A stretch of DNA of 18,612 nt from a virus (Duplodnaviria > Heunggongvirae > Uroviricota > Caudoviricetes): IMG/VR virus record IMGVR_UViG_2645727905_000004, positions 1 to 18,612 of that record; one strand, 5' to 3'. Numbering within the stretch: the first letter of the stretch is position 1; every line of letters begins with the position of its first letter. Of the stretch, positions 99 through 17,177 are shown piece by piece. Made by a program: the position numbers and the translations under genes. The notes beneath the pieces were generated by a model. That model was given only the letters and a program-made list of their open reading frames with translations. It was not told where the DNA came from and made no database searches.

Positions 99-743
99 CA
101 CACAGGTATCATGCTCAATAACAAAGTGCTACCTGTAACCATTTACAACATAGTACCATTCAATAAAACATTCTGGAATTTAATCAAAAACAGCCAGGAA
201 TGCCCTACAAATACAGATAACGTATTGAATGAATGCTTTAATAACCGTTGCACTCTGCAAATATGTCCTTATGGGCTAAAACAACAAAATCCATAAGGAG
301 TTTACTCACATCTGACAAAATCAATATAAACAGCCCCTCCGGAGAGGGGCTGGAGAGTGGCGCTATGTGCCATTGCATGGTGCCGGGTGCCTCCCGGTGA
401 ATTCAGTACCAGCACCTGAATCCGCGATTATCCCATATACCTACTCGCTGATTGCCCCTCCGCACAGGGGGATTCACCATGCCAGTTTCTTTTAACAAAC
501 TCCCCGCAAACCAGACAACAGTCAACCGCCTGAATTGTGAAGTATTTAAAAATTTCTCCCGCTAACTGATACCCGGCTAACAGTCTGGCGTTTTCTTTTT
601 CAGCAACGGGAAAGCAACAACCACCACACCCGCCACCAGCACACCGTCAGCCAGCACTGACATTATCCGGCTGCTGCAATGCCATTCACAAAAACAGTAA
701 GCAATCACTTTTTACCGTAACAGGTGATAATCCAGATATGTAT

Positions 744-1385: not shown

Positions 1386-1461
1386 TGGTGGCCCTTGCTG
1401 GATTTGAACCAGCGACCTGGCGATTATGAGTCGCTCGCTCTCACCACTGAGCTAAAGGGCC
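1386..1461 (-). tRNA. tRNA with CAU anticodon, ileX/ileZ-like (tRNA-Ile2 with lysidine; Met not excluded by anticodon alone)
   Basis: Reverse complement GGCCCTTTAGCTCAGTGGTGAGAGCGAGCGACTCATAATCGCCAGGTCGCTGGTTCAAATCCAGCAAGGGCCACCA; 76 nt cloverleaf, anticodon loop CTCATAA, closely resembles E. coli ileX as recalled; one A-C mismatch at the top of the anticodon stem. Confidence 0.8.
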
Positions 1462-1604: not shown

Positions 1605-2426
1605 TTACCTAGTTACCTTTTTTAACTGCCGCTCAGCCCATGCTTCTTCAATATCAAACCGGGTCACCAGCGCATCATAAAATTTCTTAACTGTTTTTTC
1701 CCATGACGCGCGTGTTATCTGGTTTGTCACCTCGCATATAGCATTAAATGCCTCCGTTGATGGTAGTCTTTCATAGCCACGACCACCACAACGCTGGCAG
1801 TCTCTGATAACAGGCATACCACGTTTTACCGACTCTTCACGATGAATGGCGACACCACGCCCACGGCAATCCTTACAGGCGGTGGAAACCTCACCCTTTC
1901 CGCCACACTCCGGACAGGCAACTTTTACCACCTCCCTGACTTTTTTCCATTCTTCCCAGTAAGACGGATACACACCTTTCGTACACTTTGCCCATACCGG
2001 CGGCTTACCATCCGGATACTGGACCTTGTTTGTAAAAACTATGCTTTCAATAAATTTTTCCCCATAGCAACAAGGGCACTGCTTTTTACTCGCTGCGCTG
2101 CGGGCATAATCCTCAAAAGCGTACGAAGCCATAATGCGCATCACTACCGGTTTTATTTCTGCCGGAAGTTTTCTCAACGCCGCCACACGATCGCACCGAC
2201 TGAGTGCATAATCTGCCAGTAATTCTGTTGCCCGCGCCCTGTCATTCATACTGATGCCCATTTTCCCCAGGAACGCAGAAAAACCCATCTCAGCCCGATT
2301 CTGTGTCATGCCCTGCGCGGCCATCACATCAGTGATACTCAGCGCATCTTTTGACGTTGAGGCCGATGCATCGGTCAGGCCAGGGGATTTTGGGGAGTAG
2401 TATTTCGGTAAATCTTCCAGTTTCAT
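1605..2426 (-). CDS. late-gene antitermination protein Q (lambdoid Q family, zinc-finger type)
   Basis: 273 aa; several CxxC pairs (CPCC, CPECGGKG, CKDCRGRG, CQRCGGRG); sits between rusA and the late promoter/tRNAs as in Qin and Stx-type prophages. Confidence 0.75.
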   Translation of the reverse strand: MKLEDLPKYYSPKSPGLTDASASTSKDALSITDVMAAQGMTQNRAEMGFSAFLGKMGISMNDRARATELLADYALSRCDRVAALRKLPAEIKPVVMRIMASYAFEDYARSAASKKQCPCCYGEKFIESIVFTNKVQYPDGKPPVWAKCTKGVYPSYWEEWKKVREVVKVACPECGGKGEVSTACKDCRGRGVAIHREESVKRGMPVIRDCQRCGGRGYERLPSTEAFNAICEVTNQITRASWEKTVKKFYDALVTRFDIEEAWAERQLKKVTR

Positions 2427-4306: not shown

Positions 4307-4462
4307 TTACTCCTCAGGTTCGTAAGCTGTGAAGACAGCGACCTCCGTCTGGCCGGTTCGGATTCGTACCTCGCAGAGGTCTTTCCTCGTTACCAGTGCC
4401 GTCACTATGACGGTTAAACAGATGACGATCAGGGCGATTAACATCGCCTTTTGCTGCTTCAT
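4307..4462 (-). CDS. hokD: Hok-family type I toxin (HokD/RelF-type small membrane peptide)
   Basis: 51 aa MKQQKAMLIALIVICLTVIVTALVTRKDLCEVRIRTGQTEVAVFTAYEPEE, matching HokD as recalled; SD AAGGAG upstream; an in-frame upstream ATG at 4519 gives the 70-aa ORF in the track. Confidence 0.85.
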   Translation of the reverse strand: MKQQKAMLIALIVICLTVIVTALVTRKDLCEVRIRTGQTEVAVFTAYEPEE

Positions 4463-4753
4463 AGCCTGCTTCTCCTTGCCTTTCGGCACGTAAGAGGCTA
4501 ACCTACATTTGTGAGACATAGATTGGGCCTCAGATTAATGTTAAGCGTCGTGCAGGACGCGTAATGTTAACTGGGGCTTTTCTCTATCTGCCTTTTGGTG
4601 TTCATGCCTGAGACAGATAGCCTCAAGCACCCGCAGTCATTCTACTTAACTAAGATTTCCCCGCAAACCGTTTTTATCCCCAGCTGCAAATCGAATACAC
4701 AACAAGTGCTGCCGCCATTGCAATTCCTGTCGTTGTGAATGCCTCCGGCCAGG

Positions 4754-6008: not shown

Positions 6009-6770
6009 TCACCGCTGCAGCTCTCCGGTCGCGGTAATATCCCGAAGAATATCCCGGTGCTTGTTCAGCTCCCGCAGCGCGGCGCAGACTCGTTCCCACT
6101 TCTGGACATGACTTTTCGCCCGACGCAGTTCGAGGTTTGCCATATGCAGCGATGGTAAAATCAGGTCATCCGCTCGCGTTTCAGTAAACGATGGCAGCGA
6201 CTGCACAATGCCCGCTACAGTTTCTGTTTTAATTTCTTCCTGTGTTGCGGCTTCCCGGACTGGTAACGCAACACCTGCTGGCTGAGGAAAGGTCTTACCA
6301 TCATTTTCCGTTACCGATGCTGCTTTCGGCTCTGCTGGTAAATTACCGCCCGGCATGCAGTAACGAAATTTACCGCTCTGATTAACGCGTGCCAGCCGCC
6401 CCGTTGCGGTTACCACCGCCAGCGTGGAAGCAACCTTGCGAGTACTGATGCCGAACTTACCCGCCAGTTCCTCACACGTTTTAGCCCCATCCTGACCGAT
6501 AAACTCAATCATCATGTCTGCGGTAACTTTTTGTTCGACCTCCCCGGTCAGCATATCCTGTGCTTCAGATTTTACTGGCCGCTCTTCGGTTACCAGGGAT
6601 TCACTTTCGCCAGCCAGAAACCAGGTGTGACCAGTTTTATCAACGACGCCATTTCTTTTGAGTTCCCACAGCTCGTTGAGAACCTCTTCACGACTGATAT
6701 CAAGTCGCGCGGCCAGTTCTACCGATGTGGCTTTTCCCATTGCTTTCAGTGCGTCAAAAACGGTTTCCAT
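6009..6770 (-). CDS. prophage protein with two winged-helix-like repeats (DUF1627-like)
   Basis: 253 aa; internal repeat [29 protein letters not shown] and [29 protein letters not shown]; GGAGG SD 9 nt upstream of the ATG. Confidence 0.55.
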
Positions 6771-9321: not shown

Positions 9322-9741
9322 ATGGACAAATATGAATTTAGACGACAGCAACTCATCAAAATTCGTGATGAGAAATGCGATGGTAAAGCGGTTAACGTGG
9401 CCAGAAAGATCGGGCGCGAGCCTTCTTATGTATCAAGAATGTTGTACCCAGAGGGGAAAAAGGGAAAAAAACGGATCGCTGATGATATGGTGGAGATTAT
9501 CGAAGAGTCCTTTGGGTTACCCCGGGGATGGATGGATGGTATCGTTTCATCATCAACGAACACAGCCTCCAGTTATGAAACAAGGGTTCTAACGCCACGA
9601 CAACGTATTTTTTTAGATCTCTTAGACGAACTGCCAGAAAGTGAAGCGGATAACTTATTAAAAACTCTTGAAGAGAAAAAACAGTATTACAATATGATCT
9701 ACGAAGAAATCCGTAAAAAGAAAGCACAAAACGCATCATAG
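9322..9741 (+). CDS. prophage repressor, XRE-family HTH, DicA-like
   Basis: 139 aa; HTH KAVNVARKIGREPSYVSRML; C-terminal segment LTPRQRIFLDLLDELPESEADNLL resembles the DicA C-terminal region as recalled; flanked by operator palindromes. Confidence 0.7.
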   Translation: MDKYEFRRQQLIKIRDEKCDGKAVNVARKIGREPSYVSRMLYPEGKKGKKRIADDMVEIIEESFGLPRGWMDGIVSSSTNTASSYETRVLTPRQRIFLDLLDELPESEADNLLKTLEEKKQYYNMIYEEIRKKKAQNAS

Positions 9742-10007: not shown

Positions 10008-10163
10008 ATGGATACTATCGATCTTGGCAACAACGAATCTCTGGTGTACGGCGTGTTTCCAAACCAGGACGGCACGTTCACCGCAATGACGTATACCAAA
10101 AGCAAAACGTTTAAAACCGAATCTGGAGCGCGTCGCTGGCTGGAAAGAGATTCAGGTGGGTGA
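10008..10163 (+). CDS. ydfA: YdfA-like small protein (dicB operon)
   Basis: 51 aa MDTIDLGNNESLVYGVFPNQDGTFTAMTYTKSKTFKTESGARRWLERDSGG, matching Qin YdfA as recalled; an in-frame upstream ATG at 9927 would give 78 aa. Confidence 0.65.
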   Translation: MDTIDLGNNESLVYGVFPNQDGTFTAMTYTKSKTFKTESGARRWLERDSGG

Positions 10164-10164
10164 T

Positions 10165-10293
10165 ATGGATTTCGACACAATCATGGAAAAGGCTTACGAA
10201 GAATACTTCGAAGGCCTTGCCGAAGGCGAAGAAGCCCTCAGCTTCAGCGAATTTAAACAGGCGCTTTCCAGCCCGGCAAAATCTAACGGCTGA
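10165..10293 (+). CDS. ydfB: YdfB-like small acidic protein (dicB operon)
   Basis: 42 aa MDFDTIMEKAYEEYFEGLAEGEEALSFSEFKQALSSPAKSNG translated by hand; too short for the ORF track; starts 2 nt after the ydfA stop. Confidence 0.6.
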   Translation: MDFDTIMEKAYEEYFEGLAEGEEALSFSEFKQALSSPAKSNG

Positions 10294-10322
10294 TAAGCGA
10301 AGCAGCACCGCGAGGAATCAGT

Positions 10323-10541
10323 ATGCAGAAACGAGAACCCGTCATCATCGCGCCAGACTATACCGATGATGAACTTTATGAGTGGATGCACCAGAAAATT
10401 AAGGCTGCGCAGGACCTGAAATGGGCCAATGAAGCCAGGGCTAAGCAGGCTGAAAATCTGTCCGCTCTGGAGCAGGATATCACCAATCTGGAAAAAGCAG
10501 CGGCATTAAGCATTGCCAGAATGATTACATACCCACGTTAA
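10323..10541 (+). CDS. ydfC: YdfC-like protein (dicB operon)
   Basis: 72 aa; GAGGAA SD 5 nt upstream; position and length match Qin ydfC. Confidence 0.7.
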   Translation: MQKREPVIIAPDYTDDELYEWMHQKIKAAQDLKWANEARAKQAENLSALEQDITNLEKAAALSIARMITYPR

Positions 10542-10563: not shown

Positions 10564-10971
10564 ATGGAATTTAAAGATTTACCAAAAGAAATCCAGACAA
10601 TTGCTGCAACGACTCTCGGTGATAGTCTGGTGAAAATTGACCCGGCATACACCAAAAAAGAAACCATCGATAATATGGTTCGTAATGTGCGCAATGCTTT
10701 TTCTGGGCTATATGGTTCTGATAATCAAAAGCAGGAAAGCGATGTTAATAAACGGGTAATTTCTGTTTGCGTGAATGGCCATGTTCTTTCATCAATCAAA
10801 ACAGAAACGGCGACAGTCTTCGATTGCCTTTGCATTGTACAGAGCCTTGTTGATGCCCTGTTTCGTTCAGTGAATTTAGAAAATGATGCAAATCTGCGAG
10901 GGCGCACAATAGCACATCCATATGCACATACTTTAGGCTCTGTGGATATCAAAGATCCCACAAATCTTTAA
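10564..10971 (+). CDS. hypothetical protein, inserted gene between ydfC and dicF
   Basis: 135 aa; GAGG SD 6 nt upstream; AT-richer than flanking operon genes; no family recognised; absent from the K-12 Qin arrangement as recalled. Confidence 0.55.
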   Translation: MEFKDLPKEIQTIAATTLGDSLVKIDPAYTKKETIDNMVRNVRNAFSGLYGSDNQKQESDVNKRVISVCVNGHVLSSIKTETATVFDCLCIVQSLVDALFRSVNLENDANLRGRTIAHPYAHTLGSVDIKDPTNL

Positions 10972-11182
10972 TGAAATAGTTAACGCGAATTGTACTTGCT
11001 CTTTCAGTTGCTTTCAGAATACGCGTTGAAACTGCTGGCGGTAATTTGGTATTCCATTTATTAAAATCATGCCCGGGAAAGTACTCTTCGAAAATACTTT
11101 TAACTGCAGACTCGCCTATTGAAATGCTGCTTACCATGCGATTTTGATAAAGGCATTTAGCAATAAGAGTTGATTTTAACAT
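10949..11182 (-). CDS. hypothetical small protein convergent with, and overlapping, the 135-aa ORF
   Basis: 77 aa; AGGAGG SD 4 nt upstream of the ATG at 11182; 3' end overlaps the 3' end of the plus-strand ORF by 23 bp. Confidence 0.45.
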   Translation of the reverse strand: MLKSTLIAKCLYQNRMVSSISIGESAVKSIFEEYFPGHDFNKWNTKLPPAVSTRILKATERASTIRVNYFIKDLWDL

Positions 11183-11505
11183 TCACCCTCCTGAGGGTTG
11201 GTAATTAAGGAGTTCTCCATGGGTGAAGTGGAGTGCGTGCGCCGGACACGGGTGAACATCCGGCACTGACAGTTTACTGAAAGGATATTTCTCTGAAAAG
11301 TCAGAGCATAACGCGAAAGCGCACGGCGAGGTTGCTGGTTCATAGATAGCCTGTCGTTAAATTTTCGTCGACCGTGCGCTTCCGGTTGTGGCACTCCGCG
11401 AAATGGCGCGGCGGTAAGTATGGCGGGGTTATTCCTTCCCCGTTGAGGACACCGGGTTGTCAGGTTGACCATACGCCTGAGTGACAACTCCGCTACAACA
11501 ACCCA

Positions 11506-11565
11506 TGTTGATTACCTTTTGGCGGGTATTCGTTTTGTTTTTCCCGTGATACCCGCCCCTTTTAA
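11506..11565 (+). ncRNA. dicF: DicF-like small RNA (variant) ending in an intrinsic terminator
   Basis: Sequence TTGATTACCTTTTGGCGGGTATTCGTTTTGTTTTTCCCGTGATACCCGCCCCTTTT resembles DicF as recalled (GGCGG..GTTTT..CCGTGA..CCGCCC + U-run); sits between ydfC and dicB as in Qin; boundaries approximate. Confidence 0.5.
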
Positions 11566-11740
11566 AGTGAATTTTGTGATGCGGTGAATGCGGCTCAGCG
11601 CACGCGGAACAGTTAAAACAAGCGGTCTTTTACTTGCGTAACAGACATCAACTAACAATCCGGCGTTAATGGTTTACTGGTTAACGTCACCTGGAGGCAC
11701 CAGGCGCCGCATCACAAAATTCATTGTTGAGGACGCGATA

Positions 11741-11929
11741 ATGGAAACGTTATTACCAAACGTTAATACGTCTGAAGGTTGTTTTGAAATTGGTGTCACT
11801 ATCAGTAACCCAGTATTTACTGAAGATGCCATTAACAAGAGAAAACAAGAACGGGAGCTATTAAATAAAATATGCATTGTTTCAATGCTGGCCCGTTTAC
11901 GCCTGATGCAAAAAGGATGCTGGCAATGA
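11741..11929 (+). CDS. dicB: cell division inhibitor DicB
   Basis: 62 aa METLLPNVNTSEGCFEIGVTISNPVFTEDAINKRKQERELLNKICIVSMLARLRLMQKGCWQ, near-identical to K-12 DicB as recalled; the longer track ORF starts upstream in frame. Confidence 0.85.
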   Translation: METLLPNVNTSEGCFEIGVTISNPVFTEDAINKRKQERELLNKICIVSMLARLRLMQKGCWQ

Positions 11930-12129
11930 ATACTACATTTGCACTTGTTCTGACGGTTTTTCTTGTTTCCGGTGAACCGGTTGACATGGTTACTGGCGTA
12001 TACGGCTCAATGAAAGAATGCATGGTTGCCGCAGCGGAACAGAAAATTCCCGGTAACTGTTATCCGGTCGATAAAGTTATTCACATGGATAATAACGAAA
12101 TCCCGGCAGGACTTAAAACAGCACCGTAA
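11926..12129 (+). CDS. ydfD: YdfD-like small membrane/lysis protein
   Basis: 67 aa MNTTFALVLTVFLVSGEPVD...; start overlaps the dicB stop (ATGA); hydrophobic N-terminus. Confidence 0.65.
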   Translation: MNTTFALVLTVFLVSGEPVDMVTGVYGSMKECMVAAAEQKIPGNCYPVDKVIHMDNNEIPAGLKTAP

Positions 12130-12209
12130 TTAATATCCGGTTTCATTTTTATATGCCAGCAATGGCAGGGATTTGTTCACCCTTAAATCTGTAATGAGGT
12201 TAAAACAAA

Positions 12210-14681
12210 ATGAGTAAAGTCTTTATTTGCGCCGCCATTCCGGACGAACAGGCAATAAAGGAAGAAGGTGCAGTCGCTGTAGCCACTGCCATTGAAGCTG
12301 GCGACGAACGCCGTGCTCGAGCAAAATTTCACTGGCAGTTCCTGGAACATTATCCGGCTGCTCAGGACTGCGCTTATAAATTTATTGTCTGCGAGGATAA
12401 ACCTGGCATACCCCGCCCTGCCCTCGATTCATGGGATGCTGAATATATGCAGGAAAACCGCTGGGATGAGGCGTCTGCTTCCTTTGTCCCGGTTGAGACT
12501 GAATCAGATCCGATGAACGTCACTTTTGACAAGCTGGCCCCTGAAGTACAGAACGCTGTCATGGTTAAGTTCGACACATGTGAAAACATCACCGTTGATA
12601 TGGTTATTAGCGCACAGGAATTGTTGCAGGAAGACATGGCAACATTCGACGGACATATCGTTGAAGCGTTGATGAAAATGCCAGAAGTTAACGCCATGTA
12701 TCCGGAGCTTAAGCTGCATGCCATCGGGTGGGTTAAGCATAAATGTAAGCCTGGTGCCAAATGGCCCGAAATTCAGGCAGAAATGCGCATCTGGAAAAAA
12801 CGTCGCGAAGGTGAACGCAAGGAAACCGGAAAATACACGTCTGTTGTTGATCTCGCCCGCGCCAGAGTCAATCAACAGCACACTGAAAATTCAACAGGAA
12901 AAATCAGCCTGGTCATTGCTGCCATTCATCGCGAATACAAGCAGACATGGAAAACACTGGATGACGAACTGGCCTACGCTCTCTGGCCTGGTGATGTGGA
13001 TGCCGGAAACATTGACGGCAGCATCCATCGCTGGGCAAAAAATGAAGTTATCGACAACTACCGCGAAGACTGGAAGCGTATCTCGGCATCAATGCGCAAA
13101 CAGCCTGATGCCCTTCGCTACGACCGCCAGACTATTTTTGGCCTTGTCCGTGAACGTCCGATCGACATTCACAAAGCCCCTGTGGCACTGAACAAATACA
13201 TTACTGAATACCTGACTACAAAGGGCGTGTTTGAAGATGAAGGAACAAATCAGAGCGCAACTGATACTCTCTCGTCGCCAGTACCAGAAACTGATGCAGT
13301 GGAAACGGCAATTCCGGACAACGAAAAAACCGAATGCAAAGTGGAAGTCGAACCATCTGTAGAGCGTGAGGGGCCGTTCTACTTCCTCTTCACCGACAAG
13401 GATGGCGAAAAATACGGTCGCGCAAACAAACTTTCTGGTCTGGATAAGGCACTGGCTGCCGGGGCTACTGAAATCACGAAAGAAGAATATTTCGCCCGCA
13501 AAAACGGTACATACTCAGGTTCACAACAAAATACTGGTGCATCTGACACGACCGCACAACCAGAGCCGGTAAAAGTTACCGCTGACGAAGTAAACAAAAT
13601 TATGCAGGCAGCCAATATCAGCCAGCCTGACGCCGATAAGTTGCTTGCTGCCTCTCGCGGAGAATTTGTTGCAGGGATTAGCGACCCGAATGATCCGAAA
13701 TGGGTTAAGGGGATCCAGACCCGCGATTCTGTAAACCAGAACCAGCATGAATCGGAACGGAACTACCAAAAAGCGGAACAAAACAGCCCAAATGCGTTAC
13801 AAAACGAGCCAGAAACGAAACAGCCTGAACCAGTGGCGCAACAGGAAGTGGAAAAAGTCTGCACCGCCTGCGGTCAGACCGGCGGCGGCAACTGCCCTGA
13901 TTGTGGCGCGGTGATGGGCGACGCAACATACCAGGAAACATTCGATGAAGAGTATCAGGTTGAAGTTCAGGAAGATGATCCGGAGAAAATGGAAGGCGCT
14001 GAACATCCACACAAGGAGAACACTGGCGGCAATCAGCATCATGCCAGCGATAATGAAACTGGCGAGACGGCAGATCACTCAATTAAGGTGAACGGTCATC
14101 AAGAAATCACATCCACCAGCAGGACGTGTGACCATCTAATGATCGACCTTGAAACCATGGGAAAAAATCCTGATGCCCCGATCATCTCAATAGGTGCAAT
14201 ATTTTTCGATCCGCAAACCGGAGATATGGGACCGGAATTTAGTAAGACTATCGATCTGGAAACTGCTGGCGGAGTCATTGATCGGGACACCATTAAATGG
14301 TGGCTTAAGCAATCACGCGAAGCGCAATCTGCCATTATGACCGATGAAATCCAGTTAGATGATGCACTGTTACAATTGCGGGAATTTATCGACGAAAACT
14401 CCGGTGAATTTTTTGTTCAGGTCTGGGGAAATGGAGCCAACTTCGACAACACGATTTTGCGCCGTTCATACGAACGGCAGGGGATCCCCTGCCCGTGGCG
14501 TTACTACAACGATCGCGATGTACGCACAATCGGTGAGCTGGGGAAAGCCATAGACTTCGATGCCAGAACGGCTATTCCATTCGAAGGTGAGCGCCATAAT
14601 GCACTTGATGACGCCCGTTACCAGGCAAAATACGTTTCAGTTATCTGGCAAAAACTGATCCCGAGTCAGGCTGATTTTTAA
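12210..14681 (+). CDS. large prophage exonuclease (exodeoxyribonuclease VIII / RecE-annotated type) with C-terminal DEDDh 3'-5' exonuclease domain and internal zinc ribbon
   Basis: 823 aa; C-terminal motifs MIDLETMG, WGNGANFDN, HNALDDARY typical of DnaQ-like DEDDh exonucleases; CTACGQTGGGNCPDCG zinc ribbon; acidic low-complexity linkers; position matches Qin ydfE. Confidence 0.7.
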   Translation: MSKVFICAAIPDEQAIKEEGAVAVATAIEAGDERRARAKFHWQFLEHYPAAQDCAYKFIVCEDKPGIPRPALDSWDAEYMQENRWDEASASFVPVETESDPMNVTFDKLAPEVQNAVMVKFDTCENITVDMVISAQELLQEDMATFDGHIVEALMKMPEVNAMYPELKLHAIGWVKHKCKPGAKWPEIQAEMRIWKKRREGERKETGKYTSVVDLARARVNQQHTENSTGKISLVIAAIHREYKQTWKTLDDELAYALWPGDVDAGNIDGSIHRWAKNEVIDNYREDWKRISASMRKQPDALRYDRQTIFGLVRERPIDIHKAPVALNKYITEYLTTKGVFEDEGTNQSATDTLSSPVPETDAVETAIPDNEKTECKVEVEPSVEREGPFYFLFTDKDGEKYGRANKLSGLDKALAAGATEITKEEYFARKNGTYSGSQQNTGASDTTAQPEPVKVTADEVNKIMQAANISQPDADKLLAASRGEFVAGISDPNDPKWVKGIQTRDSVNQNQHESERNYQKAEQNSPNALQNEPETKQPEPVAQQEVEKVCTACGQTGGGNCPDCGAVMGDATYQETFDEEYQVEVQEDDPEKMEGAEHPHKENTGGNQHHASDNETGETADHSIKVNGHQEITSTSRTCDHLMIDLETMGKNPDAPIISIGAIFFDPQTGDMGPEFSKTIDLETAGGVIDRDTIKWWLKQSREAQSAIMTDEIQLDDALLQLREFIDENSGEFFVQVWGNGANFDNTILRRSYERQGIPCPWRYYNDRDVRTIGELGKAIDFDARTAIPFEGERHNALDDARYQAKYVSVIWQKLIPSQADF

Positions 14682-16020: not shown

Positions 16021-16110
16021 TGGCGGAGAGAGGGGGATTTGAACCCCCGGTGGAGTTGCCCCCACTCCGGTTTTCGAGACCGGTCCGTTCAGCCGCTCCG
16101 GCATCTCTCC
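16021..16110 (-). tRNA. serU: tRNA-Ser (anticodon CGA), serU; prophage attachment site
   Basis: Reverse complement GGAGAGATGCCGGAGCGGCTGAACGGACCGGTCTCGAAAACCGGAGTGGGGGCAACTCCACCGGGGGTTCAAATCCCCCTCTCTCCGCCA, 90 nt with long variable arm. Confidence 0.9.
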
Positions 16111-17101: not shown

Positions 17102-17177
17102 TCCTCTGTAGTTCAGTCGGTAGAACGGCGGACTGTTAATCCGTATGTCACTGGTTCGAGTCCAGTCAGAGGAGCCA
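17102..17177 (+). tRNA. asnT: tRNA-Asn (anticodon GUU), host
   Basis: TCCTCTGTAGTTCAGTCGGTAGAACGGCGGACTGTTAATCCGTATGTCACTGGTTCGAGTCCAGTCAGAGGAGCCA; which asn paralogue it is follows from K-12 synteny with mtfA and serU. Confidence 0.9.

Follow-up and report, generated by a model that had tools for sequence, protein, structure and literature searches.

A divergent hairpin cassette in the dicF slot of a lambdoid prophage, probably with altered target specificity

The stretch of DNA analysed here, referred to as the window, comprises 18,612 nucleotides (IMG/VR record IMGVR_UViG_2645727905_000004) and represents a lambdoid prophage whose gene layout is that of the dicBF operon of the K-12 Qin prophage. 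On the plus strand, a repressor gene is followed by homologues of ydfA, ydfB and ydfC, a 135-codon ORF, a long non-coding stretch, dicB, a DUF1482 gene, an 823-codon exonuclease gene and, further on, the integrase gene, with ORFs present across the operon from the repressor to the integrase (Table 1). Pfam searches of the repressor and ydfC returned nothing informative. Compared with K-12 Qin, the window has about 650 bp inserted between ydfC and the leader described below, where the 135-codon ORF on the plus strand is overlapped by a 77-codon ORF on the minus strand; a Pfam search of these two ORFs gave no match. Alignment of the non-coding stretch with Qin shows near-identity over the 330 nt before a hairpin and some 60 nt after it, but not in the segment corresponding to mature DicF: identity to K-12 is 0.95 in the leader, 0.58 in the hairpin-bearing cassette (about 64 nt) and 0.92 downstream. 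The U-tract of this hairpin lies 177 nt before dicB, compared with 174 nt in K-12, which bears out the original prediction of a terminator-like hairpin upstream of this gene. Given the identity of the flanks and the matching distance to dicB, the element can be placed at the dicF locus and, as judged from the sequence, it occupies exactly the dicF slot of a dicBF-type operon. With one genome considered per species, the locus is found in Escherichia, Shigella and Trabulsiella; Erwinia has a diverged form of it. RefSeq/PGAP records show no feature at this site, even on canonical dicF copies.

The element, here termed type B, forms the hairpin that ends the ydfABC-leader segment in a repressor-controlled early-left operon of the dicBF type in a lambdoid prophage. 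Its stem of 9 bp is perfect, and the single-stranded stretch that ends at 11520 (…CCCAUGUUGAUUACCUUUU) lies immediately 5' of it. The range first proposed for the element, 11506-11565, covers the single-stranded 5' tail, the hairpin and the U-tract, and the stem and loop strings given for it were exact. Folding of the 56-nt RNA yielded -16.8 kcal/mol with z = -4.0, none of 200 shuffled sequences being equally stable, compared with -15.9 kcal/mol for K-12 DicF. A simple terminator scan left the hairpin at 11521-11557 unflagged, because its loop is longer than 8 nt and its tail contains only 4 T. Indeed, the U4 tract is one U shorter than that of K-12 DicF (U5) and of one of the sub-types presented below (B3). 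Short U-tracts are associated with weaker termination and, as tails of Hfq-dependent sRNAs, with weaker Hfq binding, and the U4 of sub-types B1 and B2 predicts that both would be weaker than with U5. The fold z-score, the recurrence of the hairpin in genomes and in IMG/VR, and its match to a covariance model built without type-B sequences establish that it is more than a chance structure.

Table 1. Features of the window discussed in the text
Feature	Position	Strand	Basis or remark
tRNA genes	1211-1284 and 1389-1461	-	
STnc100 sRNA gene, full-length	322-511	-	132 bits
Q antiterminator gene	1605-2426	-	
sok antitoxin RNA	4457-4632	-	120 bits
Repressor gene	9322-9741	+	ORF listing
ydfA, ydfB and ydfC homologues	about 10008-10541	+	ORFs and comparison with Qin
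Insertion relative to K-12 Qin	10564-11182		
Structured leader, outer stem GUUGUGGC/GCUACAAC around three hairpins	11384-11499	+	95% identical to K-12
5' single-stranded tail AACCCAUGUUGAUUACCUUUU	11500-11520	+	type-specific, replaces the K-12 tail; alignment to K-12
Hairpin, 9-bp stem GGCGGGUAU/AUACCCGCC and 19-nt loop UCGUUUUGUUUUUCCCGUG	11521-11557	+	putative seed and terminator stem
Hairpin 5' arm GGCGGGTAT	11521-11529	+	sequence
Hairpin loop TCGTTTTGTTTTTCCCGTG, 19 nt, U/C-rich	11530-11548	+	sequence
Hairpin 3' arm ATACCCGCC	11549-11557	+	sequence
CC and TTTT	11558-11559 and 11560-11563	+	putative intrinsic termination point and Hfq-binding tail
Structured spacer, cassette to dicB	11566-11724	+	MFE fold; STnc100-like
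dicB, cell-division inhibitor, 62 codons (METLLPNVNTSEG...)	11741-11929	+	ORF and RefSeq annotation of an identical stretch
tRNA gene	16024-16110	-	
tRNA gene	17102-17174	+	

DicF is a textbook example of a prophage sRNA that inhibits cell division, and it targets ftsZ, xylR, pykA, manX and, in EHEC, pchA. Against the Rfam model of DicF (RF00039), K-12 dicF scores 76.7 bits, while the whole window gave no match at the gathering threshold (48 bits), the interval 11000-12000 gave none at E<=10, and the identical type-B copy in a second locus (L003) was not matched either. The lack of a match to this covariance model is one half of the refuting outcome that the original prediction had itself named, the other half being the absence of a stable transcript. 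On the other hand, its description of an element that resembles DicF but differs in the loop and 5' region agrees with the alignment to K-12, which reveals a shared scaffold with a replaced loop and tail. The blocks UUUGGCGG, UAU, GUUUU, CCGUGA and CCGCC(C)UUUU are common to both and follow the same order, and both the sequence and the fold of the window element show a 3' stem-loop built on a GGCGG/CCGCC base, with a U-tract behind it. Type B and K-12 DicF also have in common the slot that follows ydfC and the leader and precedes dicB by 174-177 nt, a conserved processing context on both sides, and a similar length and stability. By contrast, the 5' seed UUUCUGGUGACG, which the K-12 tail carries for xylR, the inner CAG/CUG stem and the CUGCUCUG segment are missing; in place of the inner stem and the CUCCG anti-Shine-Dalgarno loop of K-12 DicF, type B has the 9-bp stem and a 19-nt GUUUUUCCC loop. 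The likeness to DicF is thus one of slot, flanks and scaffold, and it does not extend to the Rfam model, the xylR seed or the predicted pairing with pykA. On these sequence grounds, position and scaffold place the element in the DicF lineage, but it is not DicF in the Rfam sense and is probably not DicF in function.

Scanning IMG/VR for the invariant motif of the leader allowed the collection of the cassette alleles present at this site, which fall into at least nine types. All of them have the UUUGGCGG…CCGCC base and a U-tract, with different loops and 5' tails, and their fold energies range from -11 to -23 kcal/mol. Scores against RF00039 decrease from type A (the canonical DicF, 76.7 bits) through types I (61.1), C (43.5), D (38.8), H (37.8) and G (30.3) to types B (that of the window), E and F, for which there is no match, and this gradation argues for one diverging family. 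Types C to I and type B have the same slot, hairpin base and tail-plus-loop layout and differ in their loops; types C, D, G and H still reach 30-44 bits where type B gives none. The DicF loop is found paired with two tails (types A and I), and the DicF tail with three hairpins (types A, C and E). Type D has its tail (CCAUGUUGAUU...) in common with type B but a different loop, and type I, whose base stem is the compensatory variant GGUGG/CCACC, joins a related CCAUGU-type tail to the canonical DicF loop. A leave-type-out covariance model (R1), built from alleles A and C-I without type-B sequences, matched positions 11504-11567 with 27.7 bits and E~1.6e-4, the sole significant match in the 18.6-kb window; the E-values of this model are roughly calibrated, the next match had E 4.2, and the four flank columns (AAAG) contribute a few of the bits. 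It could be argued that an unrelated terminator replaced dicF by illegitimate recombination and resembles it only by chance GC-stem composition, given a cassette identity to K-12 of only 58% and the failure of the Rfam model. Such an origin is very improbable in view of the DicF order of the common blocks, the intermediate alleles that link types A and B by Rfam score, the E-value of about 1e-4 obtained with the leave-type-out model, and the tail relationships with types D and I.

In the 5,426 complete E. coli genomes, the canonical type A occurs at 6,700 places in 3,975 genomes, type B (at least 90% identity) at 159 places in 150 genomes, about 3%, and type D at 115 places in 92 genomes. FDAARGOS_1077 (NZ_CP068155) is one of the type-B strains. 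A 321-nt query retrieved 11,460 places resembling dicF-dicB. A type-B-specific scan of IMG/VR retrieved 61 loci, and 57 of them have an intact 3' arm; the scan pattern (CCTTTTGGCGGGTAT) fixes the 5' arm and the loop-proximal 6 nt of the tail, whose constancy is therefore partly a matter of ascertainment. The 21-nt tail is essentially invariant in 58 loci, with rare single substitutions in 3 loci. Three main sub-types can be distinguished: B1, that of the window, with loop UCGUUUUGUUUUUCCCGUG, and B2, with loop CCGUUUUGUUUUUCCCAUG, both continue after the stem with CCUUUU, and B3, with loop CCGUUUUUUGUUUUCCCUUGUG, continues with CUUUUU; rarer forms differ mainly in the length of the T-run. The loop is the least constant part of type B, with T-run lengths and 2-3 positions varying among B1, B2 and B3, a variability that is as expected for an unconstrained terminator loop and counts against a reading of the element as an sRNA. 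Between type-B loci, identity is 0.91-0.95 in the cassette versus 0.80-0.85 in the leader, and the leader of the window is closest to that of a type-A locus; therefore, the cassette appears to move and persist as a module, and type B is kept as a unit in different flanking backgrounds. In phage vB_Apl-pPE4 (PP818812; L250:593-778), type B is present as a perfect 93-nt tandem duplication. The duplicated unit spans from the 3' strand of the leader to the downstream stem, and it may be real or an assembly artefact. These distributions bear on the idea that type B is a decaying, non-functional dicF remnant of a defective prophage, for which one could invoke the unmatched RF00039, the loss of the xylR and pykA seeds and the shortened U-tract. 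We consider this improbable: the stem has no mismatch and equals that of DicF in stability, the allele is near-constant in 150 genomes and 61 viral contigs with its 3' arm intact in 57/61, and type B occurs in an isolated phage genome and, in the window, within an operon of open reading frames.

On its upstream side the cassette adjoins the structured leader of about 115 nt, which contains the invariant loop UUGACCAUACGC. This domain is common to P1, P7, RCS47, Salmonella phage F1055, Trabulsiella and Erwinia. When 10 leader sequences, among them those of P1, P7, Salmonella phage F1055, Trabulsiella and Erwinia, were folded together, the consensus comprised 32 pairs with 96.5% of the cells paired and compensatory changes in 7 pairs, a result matched by 4 of 500 shuffles. 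No Rfam family matches the leader at 11384-11499, and a short-word BLAST comparison with the HK022 immunity region revealed no similarity to the put antiterminator RNAs. On the downstream side, the spacer is closed by a long-range 18-bp stem (11566-11583 with 11707-11724) beside the ribosome-binding site of dicB. This spacer scores 29.9 bits against the Rfam model of STnc100, under the gathering score of 47, and a sub-threshold match to STnc100 is also found at the equivalent place in K-12 and in other loci. In K-12, the same region contains the downstream RNase III site that gives rise to 72-nt DicF (PMC5069750).

The K-12 operon provides the frame in which these structures can be interpreted. 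There, the dicBF transcript arises from a DicA-repressed promoter and DicF is formed partly by termination at its own hairpin, while RNase III cuts at a site 137 nt upstream, to give a form of 190 nt, and at a downstream site, to give one of 72 nt, and an RNase E cut at the 5' end produces the 53-nt form (PMC5069750; bioRxiv 10.1101/2023.04.14.536235). The RNase III-generated 5' end of the 190-nt precursor corresponds to about position 11379 of the window (position from bioRxiv 10.1101/2023.04.14.536235). Since the leader with its RNase III site and the long-range stem of the spacer are conserved, the same biogenesis may be envisaged for type B. Following the example of K-12 DicF, a transcript from the repressed promoter would be partly terminated at the hairpin, which would thereby attenuate read-through into dicB. 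RNase III would cut in the conserved leader near 11379 to release about 185 nt of RNA (11379-11563), which RNase E, at a presumed site in the AU-rich 5' tail, would reduce to about 45-60 nt. In the resulting sRNA, the seed could be the U/C-rich loop of 19 nt, the 5' tail or both.

The possible targets of such an RNA were addressed with an accessibility-corrected duplex calculation, which reproduces the sites reported for DicF on xylR, pykA and ftsZ (PMC5069750). The 5' seed of DicF (GGUGACGUU), which pairs with xylR (AACGUCACC), is absent from the type-B tail, and the predicted xylR pairing, -13.4 kcal/mol for K-12 DicF via its 5' seed, is -3.6 for B1 and -4.0 for both B2 and B3. At the pykA ribosome-binding site, the corresponding energies are -12.1 kcal/mol for K-12 DicF and -3.2, -4.2 and -4.1 for B1, B2 and B3; for type B, pairing with both mRNAs is predicted to be at background level. 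With ftsZ, K-12 DicF reaches -9.1 kcal/mol over positions -28 to -7, compared with -7.9 (B1), -7.7 (B2) and -3.8 (B3). The DicF-ftsZ duplex amounts to -22.7 kcal/mol over 22 nt, and the predicted B1-ftsZ interaction consists of 10 bp with one bulge at ftsZ -13 to -1 (duplex -11.3, total -7.9 kcal/mol), formed by GUUUUUCCCG with CGGAGAGAAAC in the Shine-Dalgarno-to-AUG region. A short ftsZ duplex covering the Shine-Dalgarno sequence and the start codon is thus left in B1 and B2. By duplex energy only, 25-45% of 601 prophage translation-initiation regions match the ftsZ score of the type-B loops, as against 2.3% for the 3' half of DicF; with accessibility included, 13-19% of 150 regions match the type-B ftsZ score, in a comparison of low power where the authentic DicF-ftsZ pair does not stand out either. 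Altered target pairing, as initially proposed, is therefore what the calculation gives for xylR and pykA, for which pairing is lost, while the ftsZ duplex is cut to about 10 bp and falls within the background in these comparisons, so that continued control of ftsZ is uncertain. As both seed regions differ from those of DicF, the targets should differ as well, and the specificity of this element, which is real and unannotated, is probably altered.

Within the prophage, no target co-varying with the cassette was found in the spacer, at the exonuclease start, at a far-upstream site or in the Q gene. A cis target in the variable spacer at 11632-11680 was discarded, as the type of spacer shows no co-variation with that of the cassette. 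Complementarity of 11 bp between the loop and the exonuclease start (12193-12217) was likewise set aside: type-A loci have the same start region, and in B2-linked loci an A-to-C change creates a mismatch. Pairing of the tail with 11199-11225, which would close the leader in the MFE fold, shows no co-variation either, since most loci of types A and B do not differ at the upstream site. Finally, the Q gene contains 12 nt complementary to the B1/B2 loop (about 1694-1705, minus strand); this is regarded as a coincidence, since another locus (L002) has the same cassette and a different Q gene that lacks the site.

That no target is statistically outstanding fits a rival proposal, in which the element would act purely in cis, as a terminator or attenuator and as a protective 3' hairpin, to gate the toxic dicB and the genes behind it, its loop and tail drifting under the single constraint that a hairpin and U-tract persist, without targets in trans. 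A place directly before a toxic gene suits an attenuator, the nine types all keep a stable hairpin and U-tract while their loops are unrelated, and the type-B loop varies in homopolymer length. Nevertheless, the canonical allele at this very site is a proven trans-acting, Hfq-dependent sRNA (PMC5069750), and the 21-nt tail, which is superfluous for termination, is near-invariant in 58 type-B loci with differing backgrounds. A purely cis-acting role also leaves unexplained the modular persistence of the cassette, a U4 tract would make a poor stand-alone terminator, and the 93-nt tandem duplication of vB_Apl-pPE4 is easier to understand in terms of RNA dosage than of termination. We regard an exclusively cis-acting element as a serious but less probable alternative, and favour, with a probability of about 0.6, the reading of type B as a divergent allele of the dicF cassette that combines an attenuating terminator with a processed base-pairing sRNA of altered target specificity.

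The diversity of cassettes opens the way to a wider hypothesis, which is put forward tentatively as a possibility. The dicF site would constitute a modular sRNA platform, with a constant leader and RNase III stem onto which recombination swaps cassettes (at least nine), each with its own specificity, type B being functional with targets unrelated to those of DicF. The leader, common to lambdoid prophages and P1/P7-like phages, could then serve cassettes whose specificity is directed at the host or at phages. Canonical DicF would be the commonest specificity, possibly derived from a cis-acting anti-Shine-Dalgarno hairpin like those of Salmonella phage F1055, Trabulsiella and Erwinia. In these three loci (L247, L235 and L245, respectively), a terminal hairpin of about 75 nt lies about 60-140 nt past the leader motif. 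Within it, an upstream UCUUCC pairs with the Shine-Dalgarno sequence and start codon of an ORF that continues through the U-tract. In cassette types F and G, the downstream sequence is kept and the Shine-Dalgarno sequence and ATG are absent. The ORF-enclosing hairpins, together with types F and G, hint at a cis-acting translational operator as the origin of the trans-acting anti-Shine-Dalgarno loops. The loop of type G (GUUUCUCUCC), known from an IMG/VR metagenome contig (L023), is antisense to the ftsZ ribosome-binding site GGAGAGAAAC over 10 nt without a mismatch, which is cleaner than in DicF itself; type G has no occurrence in the 5,426 complete E. coli genomes.

Elements resembling dicF outside Qin have already been noted, as phage P1 is annotated with a "dicF-like region" (NC_005856, 68791-68892) between Pban and tRNA genes. 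This region has a homologous structured leader, 77-82% identical over some 97 nt and carrying compensatory changes, and behind it a terminator hairpin of its own whose loop is different. It differs from the window element in belonging to the C1-controlled ban operon, in its hairpin (GCCCAUC-UUCG-GGUGGGC, with U6) and in having no dicB downstream. A search of the literature found no description of alternative cassette alleles at the dicF locus, although one may exist. Surveys of DicF have used near-identical copies or the Rfam model, and the copies in the main survey are more than 99% identical (PMC5069750). At least two further alleles, type B (150 of the 5,426 genomes) and type D (92), are invisible or sub-threshold to RF00039. 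Strains scored as dicF-less or as having extra copies, including ETEC, STEC and O55:H7, may hold regulators of other specificity. If active, type B would represent a natural seed-swap experiment on one scaffold, and it would offer a test of whether the toxicity and phage-defence phenotypes ascribed to dicBF depend on the target set of the sRNA.

Other RNA genes were observed elsewhere in the window. The STnc100 gene lies in the late region, downstream of Q and two tRNA genes. The sok RNA belongs to a hok/sok-type locus, and hokD is annotated at the matching place in a related genome. Two further tRNA genes, located beyond the integrase end of the prophage, likely mark the attachment-site region.
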